Positions 6,771 to 19,873 of a stretch of DNA of 56,904 bases are shown here, one piece after another. The notes beneath the pieces were generated by a model. It was not told the origin of the DNA, searched no databases, and saw only the letters and a list, made by a program, of their open reading frames with translations. Made by a program: the position numbers and the translations under genes. Numbering within the stretch: the first letter of the stretch is position 1; each line of letters begins with the position of its first letter. The stretch covers positions 1 through 56,904 of the forward strand of contig JAHECK010000003.1 of NCBI GenBank assembly GCA_024641785.1, in the 5' to 3' direction. This DNA is from Flavobacteriales bacterium (GTDB lineage Bacteria > Bacteroidota > Bacteroidia > Flavobacteriales_D > JAHECK01).

Positions 6771-8297
<1,527 letters not shown>

Positions 8298-8309
8298 AAA
8301 AAATAGAAC

Positions 8310-8606
8310 ATGGAAAATAATTTTTTTCTAGAGATTAGAACCCCGGATAAAGAGTTGTTTCATGGTGAAATAGATCAAGTGATTTTACCGGGAAAAGATG
8401 GTTCTTTTGGAATATTAAAAAACCATGCTCCTCTTATTGCCAGTCTTACTAAAGGACGTGTAAAAGTTGATGCGATCCGTGTAATTAATATGGCGATTAA
8501 TCCTATTGAAGGGGATGTTGCTAAAAAGGAAAATCAGTATTTATTCGAAATTGATGGCGGAGTAGTTGAGGTTTTGAATAATCATGTTACAGTACTTGTA
8601 GGATAA
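8310..8606 (+). CDS. atpC: F1F0 ATP synthase subunit epsilon
   Basis: 98-aa ORF immediately after atpD. The N-terminal beta-sandwich motif (L.I.TP....F.G....V.LPG..G.FGIL..HAP.I) is typical of AtpC. Confidence 0.85.
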   Translation: MENNFFLEIRTPDKELFHGEIDQVILPGKDGSFGILKNHAPLIASLTKGRVKVDAIRVINMAINPIEGDVAKKENQYLFEIDGGVVEVLNNHVTVLVG

Positions 8607-9375: not shown

Positions 9376-10317
9376 ATGTTTAAAAATATGAAATTAATAG
9401 GAGTCATCTTTCTATCAATACTTCTATTAACAAATTGTAAAAAAGATGATAAAGTGGCCGATAATGGTCAAGGAGAAGTTGTTTTCTCACCTAATCAAAC
9501 TTCAAACTTTGAGAAAAGTGCAGAAAATAACTGTGAACTCGAGGTTTCCTACGCAATGGTTGTAGTGAATGAAATGACCTACAATCTTCCCGTGTTCTAT
9601 ATCGATGGAATGCTTACTACACAAGCGATTAAACTTAATGCAGGGGACTATATACTTGAAGAGTTTATTCTAATGAATGATAATGAAACTCCGGAAATCC
9701 TGGATGATGATATCGTAGTAATGTCTTCAGTAAATGAAGAGGGAGAATTCGAGAGTTATGTCGATATGACACTCCCTTATGAGTTTACTGTAGAAGCATT
9801 CTTGAAAGTAGAGCTTCATGTAGAAGTGATCTGTTATTATCCTGAATATTATGACTGGTACGGATTTGAATTTTTCACCGTATGGGTAACTAATATTCAT
9901 GAATGGTACTTCTTTGGAGATTTATGTCTTGAATATCCAGATCTATATGAAGGAAGCTTATATGAATTGCAAACTGAAGGTTTACAAGCCGACGTTCCAG
10001 CTATTTTTGAGATCGAAGTATGGCGAAATGAAGAATACCTTGGCACTTTCAGCAATGAAAGCTATCTGGGTGAAGAAATGCCATTGAAAGTAATTTATGC
10101 GGATAGGGTAGGAATAGAAGATAATTACGAATTCAAACTATACGTTCTTGTTAATGTAGGCGAAGGATTCGATTATGAATATTTCTATACCTGGGCATTT
10201 ACCGACCTTGCAGAGCTTGATATGGGAGAAGATGGAGTTACTGATTTCGTAATTGGTGACTGTGTGTATGATGGAATTGACCTTGTACTTCCACCTTGGA
10301 TGGATTATCCTAACTAA
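9376..10317 (+). CDS. Uncharacterised surface-lipoprotein family, 'short' member of pair 1
   Basis: The start is set at MFKNMKLIGVIFLSILLLTNC by alignment with the three paralogs. It has a lipobox LLTNC followed by KKDD. It is roughly four-fifths identical (by eye) to the N-terminal ~310 aa of the next gene and ends at ..LPPWMDYPN. Confidence 0.85.
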   Translation: MFKNMKLIGVIFLSILLLTNCKKDDKVADNGQGEVVFSPNQTSNFEKSAENNCELEVSYAMVVVNEMTYNLPVFYIDGMLTTQAIKLNAGDYILEEFILMNDNETPEILDDDIVVMSSVNEEGEFESYVDMTLPYEFTVEAFLKVELHVEVICYYPEYYDWYGFEFFTVWVTNIHEWYFFGDLCLEYPDLYEGSLYELQTEGLQADVPAIFEIEVWRNEEYLGTFSNESYLGEEMPLKVIYADRVGIEDNYEFKLYVLVNVGEGFDYEYFYTWAFTDLAELDMGEDGVTDFVIGDCVYDGIDLVLPPWMDYPN

Positions 10318-10328
10318 TAATTAGTGTT

Positions 10329-11747
10329 ATGATGAATAATTTGAGATTAATAGGGGTCATCTTTTTATCAGTTCTTCTATTAACGAATTGTAAAAAAGAT
10401 GATAAAGTGACCGATAATGGTCAGGGAGAAGTTGTTTTTTCAACTAATAAAACATCAAATTTTGATAAGAGTGCAGAATCTAACTGTGAGTTAACTGTTT
10501 CTTATGCATTTGTTGTAGTGAATGAAATGACCTATAACCTGCCTGTATTCTATATTGATGGAATGATCACTACACAAGCCATTAAGCTTGATGCAGGGGA
10601 TTATACATTAGAGGAATTTATTCTAATGAATGATAATGAAACTCCTGAAATATTGGATGACGATATCGTGGTAATGGCCTCTGTAAATGAAGAGGGAGAA
10701 TTTGCGAATTATGTGGAAATGACCCTCCCTTATGATTTTACTGTAGAAGCTTTCTTAAAAGTTGAGCTTCATGTAGAAGTGATCTGTTATTATCCTGAAT
10801 ATTATGACTGGTACGGATTCGAATTTTTCACTGTATGGGTAACAAATATTCATGAATGGTTCTTCTTCGGAGATCTATGTCTGAAAGCACCTTACGAATA
10901 CGAAGAAAGCTTATACGCTGAACAAAGTCAGGGATTGCAAGTAGATGTTCCTGCTATTTTTGAAATTGAAGTATGGCGAAATGAAGAATACCTCACTACC
11001 TTCAGCAATGAAAGTTTCTTAGGGGAAAACAATCCTCTAAAAATCACTTATGCTGATAGAGAAGGTATTTTGGATGAGTATGAGTTAAGACTTAATGTAC
11101 TCGTTAAAGTGGGTGACGGATTTGAATATGTTTATTTCTACAGCTGGTTCTTTACTGATGTAGCTGAGCTTCCTACAAATGGGGATGGTGTTACCGACTT
11201 TGTGATCGGAAACTGCGTATATGATGCACCCGACTTGTTATTAGCTCCTTGGATGAATCTTCCTATGGGAATTACATATGACTGTGTTCACCCTGGTGAA
11301 AATAGCTATTTCGATATCACTTTAAGCAATATCGGTCCTGGTTATGATATCCAAAATGGAGGTCCATACGAAGGATGGTGTGCTGATCTTGATAATACGA
11401 TCGGTCCTGGTGCCTATATAATGGATGCAAAAAGTTCATTATATCCTGAACTTCTACCGGGAGTATGGCAATTGAAAGGGCCTGCGTTGAATGCTTGTAA
11501 CTGGTTGTTTAACAATCTCGATAATTATGTATATACACCTGAAGAAATGCAAGATGCATTATGGTGCCTATTTGATGGCGTACCATGTACAGGTGTTGGT
11601 GCAACTATGGTTGCAGATGCATTGAATCATCAAGACTTCTCTCCTCTTCCAGGAGGATGGGCTGCGGTTCTATTCTTTGATGTGAATGATGATCCATTTA
11701 TTAATACGGATCATACTCAAATCACATTTTTCGTGGTAGATCCATAA
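10329..11747 (+). CDS. Uncharacterised surface-lipoprotein family, 'long' member of pair 1, with extra ~160-aa C-terminal Cys/Gln-motif module
   Basis: 472-aa ORF starting 11 nt after the short gene. It has the same signal peptide and lipobox. The C-terminal extension contains GWCADL (Cys351, nt 11379-11381) and EMQDALW (Gln408, nt 11550-11552). Confidence 0.88.
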   Translation: MMNNLRLIGVIFLSVLLLTNCKKDDKVTDNGQGEVVFSTNKTSNFDKSAESNCELTVSYAFVVVNEMTYNLPVFYIDGMITTQAIKLDAGDYTLEEFILMNDNETPEILDDDIVVMASVNEEGEFANYVEMTLPYDFTVEAFLKVELHVEVICYYPEYYDWYGFEFFTVWVTNIHEWFFFGDLCLKAPYEYEESLYAEQSQGLQVDVPAIFEIEVWRNEEYLTTFSNESFLGENNPLKITYADREGILDEYELRLNVLVKVGDGFEYVYFYSWFFTDVAELPTNGDGVTDFVIGNCVYDAPDLLLAPWMNLPMGITYDCVHPGENSYFDITLSNIGPGYDIQNGGPYEGWCADLDNTIGPGAYIMDAKSSLYPELLPGVWQLKGPALNACNWLFNNLDNYVYTPEEMQDALWCLFDGVPCTGVGATMVADALNHQDFSPLPGGWAAVLFFDVNDDPFINTDHTQITFFVVDP

Positions 11748-11772
11748 AGCGATCAACTAATTAATTAAAAGG

Positions 11773-11798
11773 AGAGGCGGACATTCCGCCTCTTTTTG
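11773..11798 (+). terminator. Rho-independent terminator after lipoprotein pair 1
   Basis: The stem agaggcgg (11773-11780) / ccgcctct (11786-11793) has the loop acatt and is followed by ttttt. Confidence 0.8.
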
Positions 11799-12499: not shown

Positions 12500-13468
12500 A
12501 TGTTTAAAAATATAAAACTAATAGGAGTGATTTTTTTATCCGTACTTCTATTAACTAATTGTAAAAAAGATAATAAAGACGACTCTATGTCTCCCGGTGA
12601 AATGGTATTTGCCGCTATAGACTACGATGATACTGAAAAGGATGGATTTGATTTTTTCTGTGATGAGAATTTAATCGTTCATCATGCATATATCGTTCTG
12701 GAAAATGAAGATGCAGTTGAAAGTATCCATGAACCATTGACTTTTACTTTGGATAATAAATTATATACACAAAGTATAAAATTGGCTCCGGGCGATTATA
12801 TTATTAAAGAATTTGCTCTAATGTCTGAAGATAATCAAGTCGTAAAAGCAACTCCAATGCTAGGAGCTGATTTTGATGAGTATGTTTCCAATCCTATTGA
12901 TGATCTAGTTGATTTTCATATTACTGCTTTTGAAAAAGCACAATATGCTATTGATGTGCTGTGTTATATTCCAGCTGAATGGGACAACTTTGGTTTCGAA
13001 TGGTTTGAAGTAACTGAGATCACATTGAGAGAACAATGCTTCTTTGGCGATATCTGTATCGATGATTTTAACGCCTATGCCGGATCATTGTATGATAACC
13101 CACTAGTGAATGATGAGGTTGCTATTTATAAAATTCTGGTTTTTCGTGATCGTATAGATAATCCTTCACCAGTAGGTATGTTCTATAACACATATTATGA
13201 AAATGATGTATTAATGTATAGATCACCACTTTGCGTTCAATATGCAGATTATGATCTTGATGTCAATAACTTCGAATTTGAGTTATGGATCTTAACCAAT
13301 TTTGGCTACGAAAAATTCCATGTCTGGACTTTCACTGATGCTGAAAGAATTCCAAGTAATAATTTTGATTATGTTCCCGGATATGATGACGGAGTAGTGG
13401 ATTTCGTATTTGGTGACTGTGTAGTAACTCCTTCCGATTTAGTGCTAACTGGTCCTATTCCTAATTAA
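12500..13468 (+). CDS. Uncharacterised surface-lipoprotein family, 'short' member of pair 2
   Basis: The 322-aa product starts MFKNIKLIGVIFLSVLLLTNCKKDNKDD. It shares the Cys pattern and motifs of the family (TQSIKL.PGDY, VLCY, FGFEWFEVTEIT.REQCFFGD.CI, DGVV.FV.G.CV). Confidence 0.85.
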   Translation: MFKNIKLIGVIFLSVLLLTNCKKDNKDDSMSPGEMVFAAIDYDDTEKDGFDFFCDENLIVHHAYIVLENEDAVESIHEPLTFTLDNKLYTQSIKLAPGDYIIKEFALMSEDNQVVKATPMLGADFDEYVSNPIDDLVDFHITAFEKAQYAIDVLCYIPAEWDNFGFEWFEVTEITLREQCFFGDICIDDFNAYAGSLYDNPLVNDEVAIYKILVFRDRIDNPSPVGMFYNTYYENDVLMYRSPLCVQYADYDLDVNNFEFELWILTNFGYEKFHVWTFTDAERIPSNNFDYVPGYDDGVVDFVFGDCVVTPSDLVLTGPIPN

Positions 13469-13517: not shown

Positions 13518-14990
13518 ATGTTGAACAATATAAAATTAATAGGAGTTATATTTCTTTCAATTCTCCTGTTAACAAACTGTAAGAAAGAAGTACAAGACAC
13601 GCAACAACCCGGTGAATTGGTATTTGCTGCGATTGATGTGAATACTGAAAAAGATGGTATCGATCAGTGGGATATTATGTGTAACGAAACCCTGATACCT
13701 GTTAAAGCTAGAGTAAATTTAAATGGTGAATTTTATTACCCAGCTCTCTTTATGTCAGAAGGAAAATTATTAACTCAAAGTATAAAACTTCCTCCTGGAG
13801 ACTATACAATTTTGGAGTTTAGTTTATTAACTGCAGATGATATCGTAGTGAAATCAACTCCGATGGAAGGGTCTGATTTTGCCGATTACGTTTCCAATCC
13901 TATCGATGGTGATGTTGACTTTACTATTGCATCATTTGTGAAAAGTGAATTTGAGATGGATGTTCTTTGTTACCTTCAAGCATATTATGAAAGCTTTGGT
14001 TTCGAATGGTTTGAAGTAACTGAAATTACCATTAGAGAACAATGCTTCTTTGGTGACTTCTGTATTAAAGATGTCAATCAATATGCACAATCATTGTACG
14101 GACTTAATGGAGTTACTATTGATGAAAAAGCGATTTTCAAAATTCGATTAAATAAGTTTGATAATGATTTGAACGAGTATGTTTATTATGCAGAATTCTA
14201 CAACTTTAATAATGGTGTTTATACATCCCCTTTATGTGTTGAATATGCAGATTATGACGCTACAGATGATTTTTACCAAGCTGAATTATGGATCTACGTT
14301 ACCAGTGGTGAAACCTGGGATTATGTTTATTTCCATACCTGGGATTTTCAAGATGCTGAAAGTATCGAAGAGCTTTATGGTGTTGGAAATGATGGAGTAG
14401 TAGAATTTGTGTTAGGTAATTGTGTCGATGACGAAACCGATCTATTATTACCTCCTTGGATGAATTTACCAACAGGACCTGATTATGATTTTACATTATC
14501 TAATGGTGGTGTTGGGCCTGATGCATACTGGCATATGACAATAGGTGGGATAAGTAGTTCACTTTATGATATGCAGAATGTTACTAATTATCCTGGATGG
14601 TGTGCAGATGAATTTACAACTATTGGTAATGGAACCATCTGTATGGATGCAATAAATTCTCTATATCCTGATATGTTACCAACTTATTGGTTAGATGCAA
14701 TCCCTAGTGGAGCTAATGCGCTTACAAGAAAACAAGCTATTTGTGCTGCAAACTGGTTGTGGAATAATGAAGCGATGTATGCACCATATACTTTTATGGA
14801 AATGCAAAATGCACTTTGGAATCTATTTAATAATTTAAATGTGGGGACTTCAGGTAAATCCTTTGTTATGGCTGATGCAGCCAGAGATCATCTTGATTAT
14901 TCACCATTGCCAGGTGGATGGGCCGCTATTTTCTTTGTGCCTTGTGATGATTCACAACTTCAAATGACCTTCTTCGTGGTTGATCCATGA
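13518..14990 (+). CDS. Uncharacterised surface-lipoprotein family, 'long' member of pair 2, with C-terminal Cys/Gln-motif module
   Basis: 490-aa ORF with the same signal peptide and lipobox. The C-terminal module has GWCADE (Cys362, nt 14601-14603) and EMQNALW (Gln430, nt 14805-14807). It ends in the shared motifs SPLPGGWAA and TFFVVDP. Confidence 0.88.
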   Translation: MLNNIKLIGVIFLSILLLTNCKKEVQDTQQPGELVFAAIDVNTEKDGIDQWDIMCNETLIPVKARVNLNGEFYYPALFMSEGKLLTQSIKLPPGDYTILEFSLLTADDIVVKSTPMEGSDFADYVSNPIDGDVDFTIASFVKSEFEMDVLCYLQAYYESFGFEWFEVTEITIREQCFFGDFCIKDVNQYAQSLYGLNGVTIDEKAIFKIRLNKFDNDLNEYVYYAEFYNFNNGVYTSPLCVEYADYDATDDFYQAELWIYVTSGETWDYVYFHTWDFQDAESIEELYGVGNDGVVEFVLGNCVDDETDLLLPPWMNLPTGPDYDFTLSNGGVGPDAYWHMTIGGISSSLYDMQNVTNYPGWCADEFTTIGNGTICMDAINSLYPDMLPTYWLDAIPSGANALTRKQAICAANWLWNNEAMYAPYTFMEMQNALWNLFNNLNVGTSGKSFVMADAARDHLDYSPLPGGWAAIFFVPCDDSQLQMTFFVVDP

Positions 14991-15011: not shown

Positions 15012-15041
15012 GAAAAAGACGGGCACAGCCCGTCTTTTTTA
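15012..15041 (+). terminator. Rho-independent terminator after lipoprotein pair 2
   Basis: The stem gacgggc (15018-15024) / gcccgtc (15028-15034) has the loop aca and is followed by tttttt. Confidence 0.85.
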
Positions 15042-15226: not shown

Positions 15227-18200
15227 ATGAGCGGTCAAACAAAAGTGAAGTATCCAGGAAAAAGAATTACTACCAATGGGAACCTATTGGTATCATCTAC
15301 AGAAGCATTAATAGCACAGGGTGGGGTATTCTATCCGATCACCCCTTCCACAGAAATGGGGGAGAATTTTCAGTTGCATTTTGCTAAAGGCGATCTGAAT
15401 GCCTTTGGAGAAAATCTGATGGCAATCGAAGCCGAAGGAGAACACGCAGCACAAGGTGGTGCCATCGCCATGTCGGTAACCGGTAAGCGAACGGTTAACT
15501 TTACCTCCGGTCAGGGGATCATCTATGGTTTAGAGCAATATTATCATGCACCCGGTAAATTAAGTACCATGGTGTTAGAAGTAGGTGCAAGAGCACTTAC
15601 AAAACATGCCTTAAACGTGCATTGTGGTCACGATGACCTTTATGCCACTTTCGATACCGGTTGGACGATCCTGATGAGTAAAGATGCTCAACAAGCGGCC
15701 GACCAAGCTTTGATCTTACGTAAAGTCAATGAGATCTGTCTGAATCCCGGAATAAATGCCCAAGACGGTTTTTTAACAACTCACCTCGAACGTACTTTTT
15801 TAAAACCCGAAGCAGCCCTTGTTAGAGAATACCTTGGCGCTCCAGATGATATTATCGAATGTCCGACAGAAGGACAAATAGAATTATTTGGCCCAACACG
15901 ACGAAGAGTACCAAAGATCATCGACCTGAAAAATCCTATCGTTCTTGGTCCGGTTCAAAACCAGGAGCATTATATGAATGGAGTTGCAGCCCGAAGAAAT
16001 AATTTCTCTGAACATATTTTAGAAACACTTGAAGCAGCTTACGAAGAATATGCCGAATTAACAGGCCGCTCTTATGGATTGATCTCTCAATACAGATGCG
16101 AGGATGCAGATACTGTTTTCGTTGCCTTAGGTTCAGCCGCAGAGAATATAGAAGCCATGGTCGATCACCTTCGAGCCAATAGCGATGCGAAAGTAGGAGT
16201 GATCCATGTAAATGTTTTACGTCCTTTCCCCGAAAAAGCGATCATTGATGCGCTAAAAGGAAAAGATAATGTGATTATTTTAGAACGGACCGACGAACAA
16301 CTTGCAGGTGATAATCCACTCACAAGAGATATTCGATCTTCTCTTAGTAAAGCAGAAGCAAATCACAGAGATCTTTCTTTTGCTGATTTACCAAGCATTG
16401 ATCCTAAAACCGAAATGCCTCATTTATTTTCCGGCGTTTATGGTTTAGGTTCAAGAGATTTTAGACCCGAACATATTTTAGGAGCTTATGAATATGCCTC
16501 TGGAAAAGGAAAACGTAAAGATGGAAAAACAGCGAAAGATGGTGAGTCTTTCTTCTATTTAGGGATCGATCATCCTTATGCCGTTATTTCAAAACAAAAT
16601 CCATCCGGCTTACCTAAAGGTTCTATCGCTGTTCGTTTTCATTCTATAGGAGGATGGGGAATGATCACTACCGGTAAAAACCTTGGAATGATCTTAGGTG
16701 AATTTTCAAATTATATTGCCGAAAGAGATCAGTTAAAAGAAGAGGATGGAAGTCCGAAGGAAGTGATCCATATCTCTGCTAATCCAAAATACGGATCAGA
16801 GAAAAAAGGAGCCCCTACCAATTATTTTATGGTAGCAGCGCCCGAAAGAATTCGAGTTAATTGCGATCTGCAACATGTAAATGTGGTTTTATGCCCAGAC
16901 CCTAAAATTTTCCTACATACCGATCCATTAGCCGGATTGCGCAAAGGAGGTTCATTTATTTGGGAATCGAGCGAAACCGATCCTGCAAAAGCATGGGAAC
17001 GAATTCCAAGAAAATACCGAAAAGAATTGATCGATAACGAGATCAAAGTATATATTTTAAATGGTTTTGATATCGCGAAAAAAGCCACTCAAAAAGAAGA
17101 ATTACAAACCCGTATGCAAGGGAACTCCTTCTTGGGCGCCTTCTTTAGCGTTTCTACTTTCTTATCTGATAACCATATTCCAAACAACGAATTTCTTGAA
17201 ACAGTAAATGAGCAATACAAGAAAAAATTCGGTCGTTTTGGCGATGCGGTTGTAGAATCGAATATGATGGTAATGAAGGCCGGTTTTGAGCAGATCATAG
17301 AAGTGCCTGTAGGTGAGATCGATGCTCCTGATAAGTCACATTTCATCGCTTCTGTAATCTCCCCTTGTGAGGTTGATCTCAGTGAAGAAGAGATCTATGA
17401 AGGAGAAGAAAAAGCACCGATGTTTAAAATGTCAACCTTCGATAAGGAATTTAGAAATGGCCTTGGTTATCACCAGCCTTCTTCTGTACTTTCTTCAGTT
17501 GGATTAGTTGCTGCCGGTACCGGAGAGACTGCAAGTAAATATGTTGCACGAAGAGAAGTACCACGTTTTATTGCTGCTAATTGTACTCAGTGTATGGATT
17601 GTATAACGGATTGTCCTGATACAGCTTTACCTAATACAGCACAGGATATCTCAACAGTGGTTGCAACGGCGGTTCGGCATTATGTAAGTGATGAAGACGA
17701 TCGTCAAAGCTTATTGAAAGGAATTGATAAACTGGATAAAACAGTTCGTGCAGAAATGATCATGCGGGCTGCGATAAGTGATGACCAAAGTTTATTCTCT
17801 GATATCGTTTTGAAAAATATCGTCGAATTGAATTTGATCAGCAAAGATTCAGCCGCTTATTCAGAGTTAAGCGCCATTATGGAAACGCTTCCTTTTGCCT
17901 TTCATAAAGCGAAAGCTATTTTCGGAAATAAAGAAAATAAAGAACCGGGTGAAGGAGGAATTTTTGGAATCTTTGTAAATGACCTTTGTAAGGGATGTGG
18001 CGCATGTGTCGAAGCTTGTGGCCACGGAGCGCTGGAGATGATCTCTGAAAAAGAAGATATCCATGCAAATTATAAATCTTCAATTAAATTTTTAGATCTA
18101 TTATCCAATACACCAAGAAAATATCTAGGTCTTTTCAACCCTGAAAATCCTGAAGAATCGAAAGCAGCAGCATTGAAAAATCACATGATGCTTCGCTCAA

Positions 18201-19873
18201 AATACAATGCATTGGTTTCAGGAGATGGAGCTTGTGCCGGTTGTGGAGAAAAATCGGTATTGCATGCCATCGCCACCTTAACCGAAACAATGATGCGTCC
18301 GATTTACCATCATAAAGCAGATCGTTTTAATGAGAAAGCGGATCAGCTGGAAAAAGTTGGATTAGCCAATTTGATGGAATTAAAGAAAAAAGATGAATCC
18401 GCATATTTTTCATTCCGACGAACTATTTTACATCTTTTGATGGGTTTAGGAGCCGAGAATACTAAGGTAACGGATAAAATGATCGAAGATGAATTTGATG
18501 GGGAAGATGCTGATATCATTAACTCTCTGATCGTAGTTCTTCGTCAGGAAGCATTTAACCATAAATACCTGCAAGCGATCGAAGGAAGATTTCCAAATGG
18601 AATGACTGCGATGGCAATGACCGCAAATACCGGTTGTAATAGTGTTTATGGATCAACTCCTCCAAATAATCCACATCCTTATCCATGGATGAATTCATTA
18701 TTCCAGGATGGGGCAACAATTGGTTGGCTTATTGGCGAAAGTTTTATTTATGATCATGCAAAAAGATCGGTTATTCCTGAGCGATTAAGCGATACAGTGA
18801 TAGGAGGATTTAAAAAATCATACAGCGATAAGGACTACTTTAAGTATACTCACTTCACTGATTTTGATATGACGGATGATGAGGTGATGGAAATGCCGAA
18901 AGTATGGGCCATTGGTGGTGATGGAGGAATGGGAGATATCGGTTTCCAGAATGTTTCTAAAGCAGTGCTTCAAAATCGACCTAATGTAAATATCATGTTA
19001 TTGGATACTCAAGTGTATTCAAATACAGGAGGACAAAATTCTGATTCTTCACCGATGACAGGTGGTTTTGATATGAATCAGTTTGGGGCTGCTTCTGAAG
19101 GAAAACAAACCGAAAGAAAATCAGTAGCTGAAGCCTTTTTAGGTGGACATGGTTCTCCATACATTGCTCAAGTTTCTTTTGCTAATTCAGCAACTTTGTT
19201 TAAATCATTGCTCGATGGTTTGTACTATAGAGGTACTGCTTTTTTCCAGGCCTTTACTTCATGTATGCCGGAACATGGTATTCCGGATCATGCAGCACAG
19301 ATTCAAGCCCTTCGATTAAGAGATAGTAGAGGAATGGCCGAATTTGTATATGATCCTTCATTAGGAGAGCGTTACGATGATACTTTGAATATAAGAAGTA
19401 ATCAGGCTTATGACAGAGACTGGGCTCAAAAAGTGATTCCGGTAACTCGTAAACGATATGATTATACCGTTGCACATTGGACATTCACTGAAGCTCGTTT
19501 CAGATACCATCATAAAATCGTGAAGAAAGAAGCGACTGAAGGTATGATCTCTCTTGAAGACAAGATCAAATTCGTATCGATGAATGATATCGTTCATCGT
19601 CGTCATACGAATCCTGAACATCGTTCATATATTCAAGATTTTGGAGTATATACGATCGATTACGATAATGAAGGAAATGAGGTTTATCACATACTTTCTC
19701 GTCAGATGGTTGCATTTGTAGTAGAAAGAAGAAAAGCATGGAGGATCCTTCAAAGTCGCGCAGGAGTGGTTAATAAAGATTATATAGAGCAACGTAACTT
19801 ACTTAGCCGAATGGATAAGGAAGGACTTTCTCAAAACGATATATTAAGTGAGATAGCTGCAAGTTTAAATTAA
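15227..19873 (+). CDS. Unusually long fused pyruvate/2-oxoacid:ferredoxin(flavodoxin) oxidoreductase (PFOR/NifJ-type)
   Basis: 1548-aa ORF. It has an N-terminal PFOR domain I (GGVFYPITPSTEMGE), a gamma-like domain (IGGWGMITTGKNLG) and two 4Fe-4S motifs (CTQCMDCITDCP and CKGCGACVEAC). It also has the TPP-binding motif GGDGGMGDIGF...N.VYSNTGGQ. Confidence 0.9.
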   Translation: MSGQTKVKYPGKRITTNGNLLVSSTEALIAQGGVFYPITPSTEMGENFQLHFAKGDLNAFGENLMAIEAEGEHAAQGGAIAMSVTGKRTVNFTSGQGIIYGLEQYYHAPGKLSTMVLEVGARALTKHALNVHCGHDDLYATFDTGWTILMSKDAQQAADQALILRKVNEICLNPGINAQDGFLTTHLERTFLKPEAALVREYLGAPDDIIECPTEGQIELFGPTRRRVPKIIDLKNPIVLGPVQNQEHYMNGVAARRNNFSEHILETLEAAYEEYAELTGRSYGLISQYRCEDADTVFVALGSAAENIEAMVDHLRANSDAKVGVIHVNVLRPFPEKAIIDALKGKDNVIILERTDEQLAGDNPLTRDIRSSLSKAEANHRDLSFADLPSIDPKTEMPHLFSGVYGLGSRDFRPEHILGAYEYASGKGKRKDGKTAKDGESFFYLGIDHPYAVISKQNPSGLPKGSIAVRFHSIGGWGMITTGKNLGMILGEFSNYIAERDQLKEEDGSPKEVIHISANPKYGSEKKGAPTNYFMVAAPERIRVNCDLQHVNVVLCPDPKIFLHTDPLAGLRKGGSFIWESSETDPAKAWERIPRKYRKELIDNEIKVYILNGFDIAKKATQKEELQTRMQGNSFLGAFFSVSTFLSDNHIPNNEFLETVNEQYKKKFGRFGDAVVESNMMVMKAGFEQIIEVPVGEIDAPDKSHFIASVISPCEVDLSEEEIYEGEEKAPMFKMSTFDKEFRNGLGYHQPSSVLSSVGLVAAGTGETASKYVARREVPRFIAANCTQCMDCITDCPDTALPNTAQDISTVVATAVRHYVSDEDDRQSLLKGIDKLDKTVRAEMIMRAAISDDQSLFSDIVLKNIVELNLISKDSAAYSELSAIMETLPFAFHKAKAIFGNKENKEPGEGGIFGIFVNDLCKGCGACVEACGHGALEMISEKEDIHANYKSSIKFLDLLSNTPRKYLGLFNPENPEESKAAALKNHMMLRSKYNALVSGDGACAGCGEKSVLHAIATLTETMMRPIYHHKADRFNEKADQLEKVGLANLMELKKKDESAYFSFRRTILHLLMGLGAENTKVTDKMIEDEFDGEDADIINSLIVVLRQEAFNHKYLQAIEGRFPNGMTAMAMTANTGCNSVYGSTPPNNPHPYPWMNSLFQDGATIGWLIGESFIYDHAKRSVIPERLSDTVIGGFKKSYSDKDYFKYTHFTDFDMTDDEVMEMPKVWAIGGDGGMGDIGFQNVSKAVLQNRPNVNIMLLDTQVYSNTGGQNSDSSPMTGGFDMNQFGAASEGKQTERKSVAEAFLGGHGSPYIAQVSFANSATLFKSLLDGLYYRGTAFFQAFTSCMPEHGIPDHAAQIQALRLRDSRGMAEFVYDPSLGERYDDTLNIRSNQAYDRDWAQKVIPVTRKRYDYTVAHWTFTEARFRYHHKIVKKEATEGMISLEDKIKFVSMNDIVHRRHTNPEHRSYIQDFGVYTIDYDNEGNEVYHILSRQMVAFVVERRKAWRILQSRAGVVNKDYIEQRNLLSRMDKEGLSQNDILSEIAASLN

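Follow-up and report, generated by a model that had tools for sequence, protein, structure and literature searches.

A thioester-domain homologue at the C-terminus of a predicted surface lipoprotein from a Flavobacteriales bacterium

We analysed a stretch of 56,904 nucleotides (nt) from a Flavobacteriales bacterium (assembly GCA_024641785.1, contig JAHECK010000003.1), the whole of which is called the window here. An open reading frame (ORF) on its forward strand (10329-11747), referred to as long paralog 1, encodes a predicted surface lipoprotein of 472 amino acids (aa) that ends in an additional C-terminal module (residues 311-472; 11259-11744). Structure modelling with AlphaFold2 (AF2), a Foldseek search and hhalign comparisons place this module among the thioester domains (TEDs), in which a Cys and a Gln form an internal bond; the homology and the TED fold are stated with high confidence. 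The module is probably a compact class-I-like TED situated at the far end of the lipid-anchored protein, and the thioester it would form joins Cys351 to Gln464. Gln464 was assigned to the position of the bond partner by its place in the domain, its secondary structure and its conservation, and it is the predicted acceptor and the predicted site of cross-linking to a target.

TEDs are defined by three motifs. The C motif, [YFL]CΦζ, lies in a β-strand and contains the bond-forming Cys. The T motif, TQxxΦW, lies in the central helix α2; its Gln and Trp stand beside the bond, hydrogen-bond the Cys backbone and are dispensable. The Q motif, a weak ΦQζΦΦ pattern on the C-terminal β-strand, holds the bond-forming Gln (PMC4450167, PMC6194298). 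The T motif is conserved in most TEDs but not in all. The class I fold consists of a six-stranded β-barrel together with a bundle of three helices (PMC6194298).

In the AF2 model of the module, all three motifs are present in the expected secondary structure, that is, C strand, T helix and Q strand. The C motif, W350-C351-A352-D353 (11376-11387), closes strand β3 and has Trp instead of Tyr, Phe or Leu; Cys351, the predicted thioester donor, is encoded by TGT (11379-11381) in the context EGWCADLD. The equivalent of TQxxΦW, M407-Q408-D-A-L-W412 (11547-11564), lies in helix α2, with Gln408 encoded by CAA (11550-11552; context EEMQDALWCLFDG) and Trp412 at 11562-11564. The Q motif, Q464-ITFFVVDP472 (11718-11744, with the Gln464 codon at 11718-11720), lies on the last β-strand, and the protein terminates in HTQITFFVVDP. 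The letters T-Q-I-T-F at the start of this strand fit the consensus loosely, as they do in known TEDs. A check of the codons confirmed the positions that the initial annotation of this DNA, made from the sequence alone, had given for Cys351 and Gln408. Its module start, 11257, misses the reading frame by two bases and was moved to the in-frame position 11259.

The AF2 model was computed without templates from a 37-sequence alignment; an earlier run with 4 sequences was unusable, with a predicted local distance difference test score (pLDDT) of 47.5. The final model reached a pLDDT of 91.2 and a predicted TM-score (pTM) of 0.87. It contains strands at residues 315-320, 328-333, 344-351 (ending at Cys351), 361-369, 445-451 and 466-470 (just after Gln464), and helices at residues 378-394, 404-416 (which holds Gln408 and Trp412) and 422-432. 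This topology of six strands and a three-helix bundle is that of class I TEDs. An additional motif, N391-W-L-F-N395 (11499-11513), was located on helix α1, which spans to residue 394 and includes Asn391. When the model was compared with the PDB by Foldseek, ranks 1-13 were all TEDs, and from rank 14 onward the probability was <=0.02. The CpTIE-TED entries 5a0d/5a0g (targets of 172-176 aa) were matched with an E-value of 7e-4 to 1e-3, a probability of 0.99-1.00 and a TM-score of 0.40-0.48. The Cpa entries 2xic/4bug gave a query TM-score (TMq) of 0.45-0.49, and BaTIE (6fwv) was also found within the TED matches.

To determine the extent of the family, a module profile built from four sequences (A1) was used in a HMMER scan over 1.84 billion protein cluster representatives. 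It retrieved 669 representatives at E<=1e-3 and 146 at E<=1e-10, while an earlier word-indexed search had found two close relatives only. Conservation was then counted in a MAFFT alignment of 141 module sequences among these representatives. Cys351 is conserved in 139 of them, and the residue before it is aromatic in 135 (W 105, Y 18, F 12); Asp353 is present in 120. On the helices, Trp412 is found in all 141 sequences, Gln408 in 140, Ala410 in 122, Asn391 in 137 and Asn395 in 140. At the C-terminus, Pro472 is kept in 128 sequences and Gln464 in 139, which bears out the earlier remark that the module ends in a conserved Gln-containing strand. Gln464 is invariant in alignments A2, A3 and A5, and the two sequences without it carry aberrant C-termini. 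Judged from these sequences, the motif pattern reflects a family and lies far beyond chance.

The link to curated TED families is provided by relatives of the module. The PF08341 model has a gathering threshold of 22 bits and a length of 102 positions. The A1 profile reaches the protein P0127 at E 9e-12, and P0127 scores 56.3 bits on PF08341 over the same stretch. A second relative, P0168, scores 22.8 bits, whereas P0143, P0159, P0166, P0120 and P0156 fall slightly under the threshold; these matches always begin at the Cys motif. For the P0127-like subfamily, the consensus scores 20.2 bits. In the relatives, positions 2-4 of PF08341 coincide with the C motif and the model extends through QxAIW, and positions 31-42 of TIGR03934 align to the T motif DIQCAIWHFTDG in P0143. 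When 33 diverse members were scanned singly, TED was matched by 4 members (best E 5e-4), TQXA_dom by 4 and 'thioester-forming surface-anchored protein' by 2, and these were the sole families matched by more than one member. An hhalign comparison of 66 lipoprotein-type modules with 22 P0127-like modules gave a probability of 99.8% and an E-value of 1.9e-30 over 156 columns. In this alignment, the Cys, NWxxN, QxAIW and terminal Gln of both groups fall in the same columns.

Several observations weigh against the assignment. Neither PF08341 nor TIGR03934 matches the window module, even when E-values up to 10 are admitted, and neither matches the consensus of the lipoprotein subfamily. No TED chain came up when the PDB was searched by sequence, whether the query was the module itself or one of the profiles A1, A2 and A5. 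The TM-scores from Foldseek are moderate (0.45-0.49), with a root-mean-square deviation of ~6 Å. The N-terminal residue of the T motif is Met, not Thr; the initial annotation had noticed this replacement, and it holds family-wide, the position being I, V, L or M. When the family was compared by hhalign with class II TEDs, represented by an alignment of pLS20 p34 with eight plasmid relatives, no significant match resulted (probability 0.4%, E 0.15). This last result fits the reported divergence of TEDs, since they share just 12-23% identity with each other (PMC6194298). In a single local hhalign alignment, which is anecdotal, Gln464 and FFVVDP fell on Gln245 (Gln256 in the numbering of the paper) and FVVDP of the pLS20 protein, and this pLS20 Gln has been modelled as the bond partner (PMC8092201).

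Likewise, no TED was revealed when both long paralogs were scanned against Pfam and NCBIfam and both short paralogs against Pfam. The PF08341-positive P0127 was itself compared with the PDB by sequence, as a whole and as a single domain, and no TED chain was found. The sole PDB sequence match of the module searches, the designed repeat protein 5mfi, was rejected, as it shares just an IQEAVW-like helix. A profile search of the module against PF08341 and TIGR03934, proposed earlier as a check, therefore gives no direct match, but relatives of the module do reach the PF08341 threshold. A whole branch of the TED family thus escapes PF08341 and TIGR03934.

The alternative that survives best is a domain with the TED fold that is not a covalent adhesin. 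Such a domain would form no thioester, or one that merely stabilises the fold, or its Cys351 would have a catalytic, redox or disulfide role, with non-covalent binding. We consider this unlikely, although it agrees with the position of the lipoprotein subfamily beyond direct detection by the PF08341 hidden Markov model (HMM) and with the passage of the protein through the oxidising periplasm, which Gram-positive TEDs do not make. It also agrees with the sequences of P0005 and P0104, in which Ser replaces the conserved Cys and the strand Gln is retained. These two proteins are perhaps inactive variants, or the bond they form may be an ester and not a thioester. A disulfide role is opposed by the distribution of Cys residues. 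The remaining Cys residues of the module (319, 390, 413 and 420) are not conserved in the 141-sequence alignment, so the module offers Cys351 no conserved disulfide partner. Moreover, Cys351 is the fifth conserved Cys besides the lipidated Cys21, following four invariant ones in the N-terminal region (Cys53, Cys153, Cys184 and Cys296), and is thus the odd one out for disulfide pairing. As for a fold-stabilising role, published TED structures show the thioester not to be a structural determinant.

The initial annotation had suggested a TED-like domain with a bond between Cys351 and Gln408 of M-Q-D-A-L-W. The domain itself was upheld by the fold, the Foldseek matches and the homology to relatives that score on PF08341; the bond was not. 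Gln408 is almost invariant, and the equivalent Gln in TEDs lies directly beside the bond. However, all characterised TEDs use the Gln of the C-terminal β-strand, and the Gln and Trp of TQxxΦW are dispensable for bond formation. In the model, Gln408 is on helix α2, and the conserved strand Gln464 occupies the canonical position. Because the bond-forming Gln of TEDs lies on the C-terminal β-strand, the Cys had been paired with the wrong Gln, and we rejected the Cys351-Gln408 bond as very improbable. The spacing of 57-68 aa, which had been noted as shorter than in TED structures, is the ordinary distance from C motif to T motif, given that the 102 positions of PF08341 run from the Cys through QxAIW. 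The spacing between the Cys and the strand Gln is 113 aa in long paralog 1 and 120 aa in long paralog 2. A chance resemblance of motifs in an unrelated domain, for which only the missing direct Pfam, NCBIfam and PDB sequence matches of the window module speak, is scarcely credible and was dismissed in view of the structural matches to TEDs exclusively, the hhalign probability of 99.8% to the PF08341-scoring subfamily, and the three-motif pattern in the correct secondary structure elements over 141 representatives.

For the preferred pair, Cys351 and Gln464, the following mechanism can be proposed. During folding, the thiol of Cys351 would attack the side-chain amide of Gln464, and ammonia would be released. 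The resulting thioester would be buried where the β-barrel meets the helical bundle; Gln408 and Trp412 of helix α2 would pack against the bond, as TQxxΦW does in known TEDs, without serving as the partner. An amine on a target surface would then attack the thioester, so that the target becomes amide-linked to Gln464, Cys351 is freed and adhesion is covalent. From the position and conservation of the two residues, autocatalytic formation of this thioester with loss of NH3 appears probable. That it serves for covalent attachment to a target amine is suggested by analogy with SfbI, Cpa and pLS20 p34, and here we judge the chances to be about even.

The N-terminus of long paralog 1 carries a signal peptide (10329-10406) with the lipobox LLLTN-C21, as read from the sequence. 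The lipobox Cys21 is followed by an export signal, C21-K-K-D-D-K26, that matches C-X-K-(D/E)2-X, the optimal lipoprotein export signal of Flavobacteriaceae (PMC5080379). Since both the lipobox and the export signal are present, long paralog 1 is predicted to be exposed on the cell surface, in line with a surface-exposed Bacteroidota lipoprotein. A lipobox was also found in most relatives of ~500 aa. With the lipid anchor at the N-terminus, the C-terminal TED would be at the distal end, which mirrors the arrangement of Gram-positive TIE proteins, whose TED is N-terminal, followed by a stalk of isopeptide or ester domains and a C-terminal LPXTG sortase anchor. The intervening region (residues 22-310; 10392-11258), delimited with alignments A4 and A5, is a presumed stalk or spacer. 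It is common to all four paralogs described below and to ~100 relatives, in which the four N-terminal Cys residues are invariant and a FFGDxC motif is conserved. Pfam and PDB sequence searches with the N-terminal 290 aa gave no match.

Long paralog 1 belongs to a cluster of four paralogs, all on the forward strand, that form two short+long pairs. Long paralog 2 (13518-14990; 490 aa) also has a TED-like module (14430-14987), identified by BLASTP; the modules of the two long paralogs share 42% identity (E 2e-36). Its equivalent residues are Cys362 (14601-14603), the T-motif Gln430 (14805-14807) and the strand Gln482 (14961-14963). Short paralog 1 (9376-10317), which ends in ..LPPWMDYPN, and short paralog 2 (12500-13468; 322 aa), directly upstream of long paralog 2, lack the module, and alignment showed that both terminate exactly at the module boundary. 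Short paralog 1 shares 80% identity with residues 1-310 of long paralog 1. The short paralogs are not pseudogenes, because short forms of 304-313 aa are conserved across other assemblies. Terminator-like hairpins are found only after the long genes (11769-11797 downstream of long paralog 1, and 15012-15040).

The closest genome, a Flavobacteriales metagenome-assembled genome (MAG), has an identical gene order and was the sole match of the A1 profile search of genome contigs. Long paralog 1 itself had no exact entry in the contig index. In the neighbourhoods of relatives elsewhere, tandem paralogs were observed with cargo of the type IX secretion system (T9SS) nearby. No conserved partner gene was found in the neighbourhoods of relatives that were compared. 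By eye, the paralog cluster in the window is flanked by an ATP synthase beta/epsilon pair (6786-8606) and an ORF of 1548 aa resembling pyruvate:ferredoxin oxidoreductase (15227-19873), which are housekeeping genes and not an adhesion or secretion locus. In the related MAG (L001), an ATP synthase beta-like ORF is likewise located upstream of the paralogs.

Across the family, the module forms the C-terminal end of a ~500-aa protein in 82 of 152 proteins, most of which start with a lipoprotein signal. The 109 full-length relatives of long paralog 1 are all unnamed or 'hypothetical' and carry no precomputed Pfam domain, and those with a source name come from Bacteroidota or Bacteroidales MAGs. Other architectures were also observed. 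In some members the module directly follows the signal peptide. In P0014 (616 aa), a T9SS C-terminal sorting domain comes after three TED-like modules in tandem, and P0007 (3310 aa) has five modules with DUF7507/DUF11 repeats in between; each of the two would be a surface protein with several warheads. Modules adjoin SdrD-B domains in P0127 and P0130, and RTX repeats in P0081. In P0121 (465 aa), the C-terminal TED-like module is accompanied by a type-IV-pilin N-methylation motif and a Big_9/cadherin-like domain. By analogy with Cpa, which is carried on sortase pili, P0121 may act as a thioester adhesin at the tip of a type IV pilus or pseudopilus.

In the proteins P0159-P0181 (~350 aa, alignment A3), the module is apparently inserted between the halves of another conserved domain, of which the N-terminal half contains ..LYVKY..THLxVATS.. 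and the C-terminal half ..ETAWGG..NWAxYFxYxVQ. This arrangement recalls Cpa, whose TED is inserted into a β-sandwich domain. The two close relatives with a source name in this set, P0168 and P0175, come from Anaerolineae. For P0163, a precomputed Pfam accession (PF27764.1) is given that the Pfam release scanned does not contain; it might be a newer family covering part of this protein. TED-like module proteins are also encoded by plasmids of Paracoccus, Limimaricola, Alloyangia and Rhodobacter (H1-H4); three of them are annotated as 'SdrD B-like domain-containing protein' and the Limimaricola one as 'hypothetical protein'.

In the literature searched up to 2026, covalent thioester adhesion is treated as a Gram-positive trait, mostly of pathogens (PMC6194298, PMC4450167), so that a TED on a Bacteroidota surface lipoprotein is as unusual as had been supposed. 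The domain type is already known. What sets this case apart is the Gram-negative host, the lipoprotein anchor, the C-terminal position, the compact helical subdomain, the hydrophobic T-motif residue and NWxxN. The lipoprotein branch of TEDs is invisible to current HMMs and is unannotated. It is an evenly balanced possibility that an unrecognised clade of compact TEDs is widespread outside Gram-positives and equips environmental diderm bacteria with a covalent 'harpoon' by which they attach to particles, to hosts or to other cells. Such a clade may include the tips of Bacteroidota surface lipoproteins, in >100 unnamed clusters at 90% identity, as well as T9SS cargo, RTX-type, type-IV-pilin-like and Chloroflexota surface proteins, and tandem gene pairs may supply one version that bears the warhead and one that lacks it. 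Should Cys351 and Gln464 indeed be joined, outer-membrane lipoproteins of Bacteroidota would come within the reach of the mechanism, and a large 'hypothetical' protein family would gain a testable function. It would also provide a very small natural TED (~160 aa) for study and possibly for protein-ligation tools.

Among known thioester systems, the complement/α2-macroglobulin proteins resemble the module in that a Cys-Gln thioester would couple covalently to targets. They differ in their unrelated fold, and the module has a Cys-Gln spacing of 113 residues; the C-x-E-Q motif is absent from both long paralogs, and a complement-type CGEQ thioester was rejected on this ground. Long paralog 1 is not a TIE protein, though its domain is a TED homologue, because the anchor, the domain order and the stalk differ: it has an N-terminal lipobox and a TED at the extreme C-terminus (VVDP), with no LPXTG and no CnaB or ester domain matched. 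The class II TEDs (BaTIE, SaTIE, EfmTIE86 and pLS20 p34/TIEpLS20) are represented among the Foldseek matches by BaTIE (6FWV), but their ~75-residue β-sandwich insertion and slipknot are absent from the module.

The closest known relatives are class I TEDs, in the first place CpTIE-TED of Clostridium perfringens (5A0G/5A0D), and also SfbI-TED, PnTIE-TED and Cpa. Unlike these, the module belongs to a Gram-negative Bacteroidota host and to a protein with an N-terminal lipid anchor, in which the TED is C-terminal instead of N-terminal and no isopeptide or ester stalk domains are recognisable. The first residue of its T motif is hydrophobic and not Thr, a near-invariant N-W-x-x-N motif is additional, and the domain escapes detection by PF08341/TIGR03934. 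In common with class I TEDs, it has a size of ~170 aa, a six-stranded β-barrel with a three-helix bundle, a third strand bearing the Cys in an aromatic-C-Φ-ζ motif, a middle helix with QxxΦW and a conserved last-strand Gln 8-10 residues before the domain-ending Pro, and it lies at the end of the surface protein farthest from the anchor. CpTIE-TED consists of a β-subdomain (Ser100-Gly162 and Pro251-Thr276) and a helical subdomain (Ser163-Ile250), the latter being longer than the helical region of the module (~378-432). The Cys-Gln spacing is 129 in CpTIE, ~152-153 in SfbI and PnTIE and 113 here, and the difference of 16 residues from CpTIE is accounted for by the shorter helical part. Cys138 of CpTIE is 38 residues into the β-part, and Cys351 is 36 residues after strand 1; Gln267 of CpTIE is 10 residues before Pro277, and Gln464 is 8 before Pro472.

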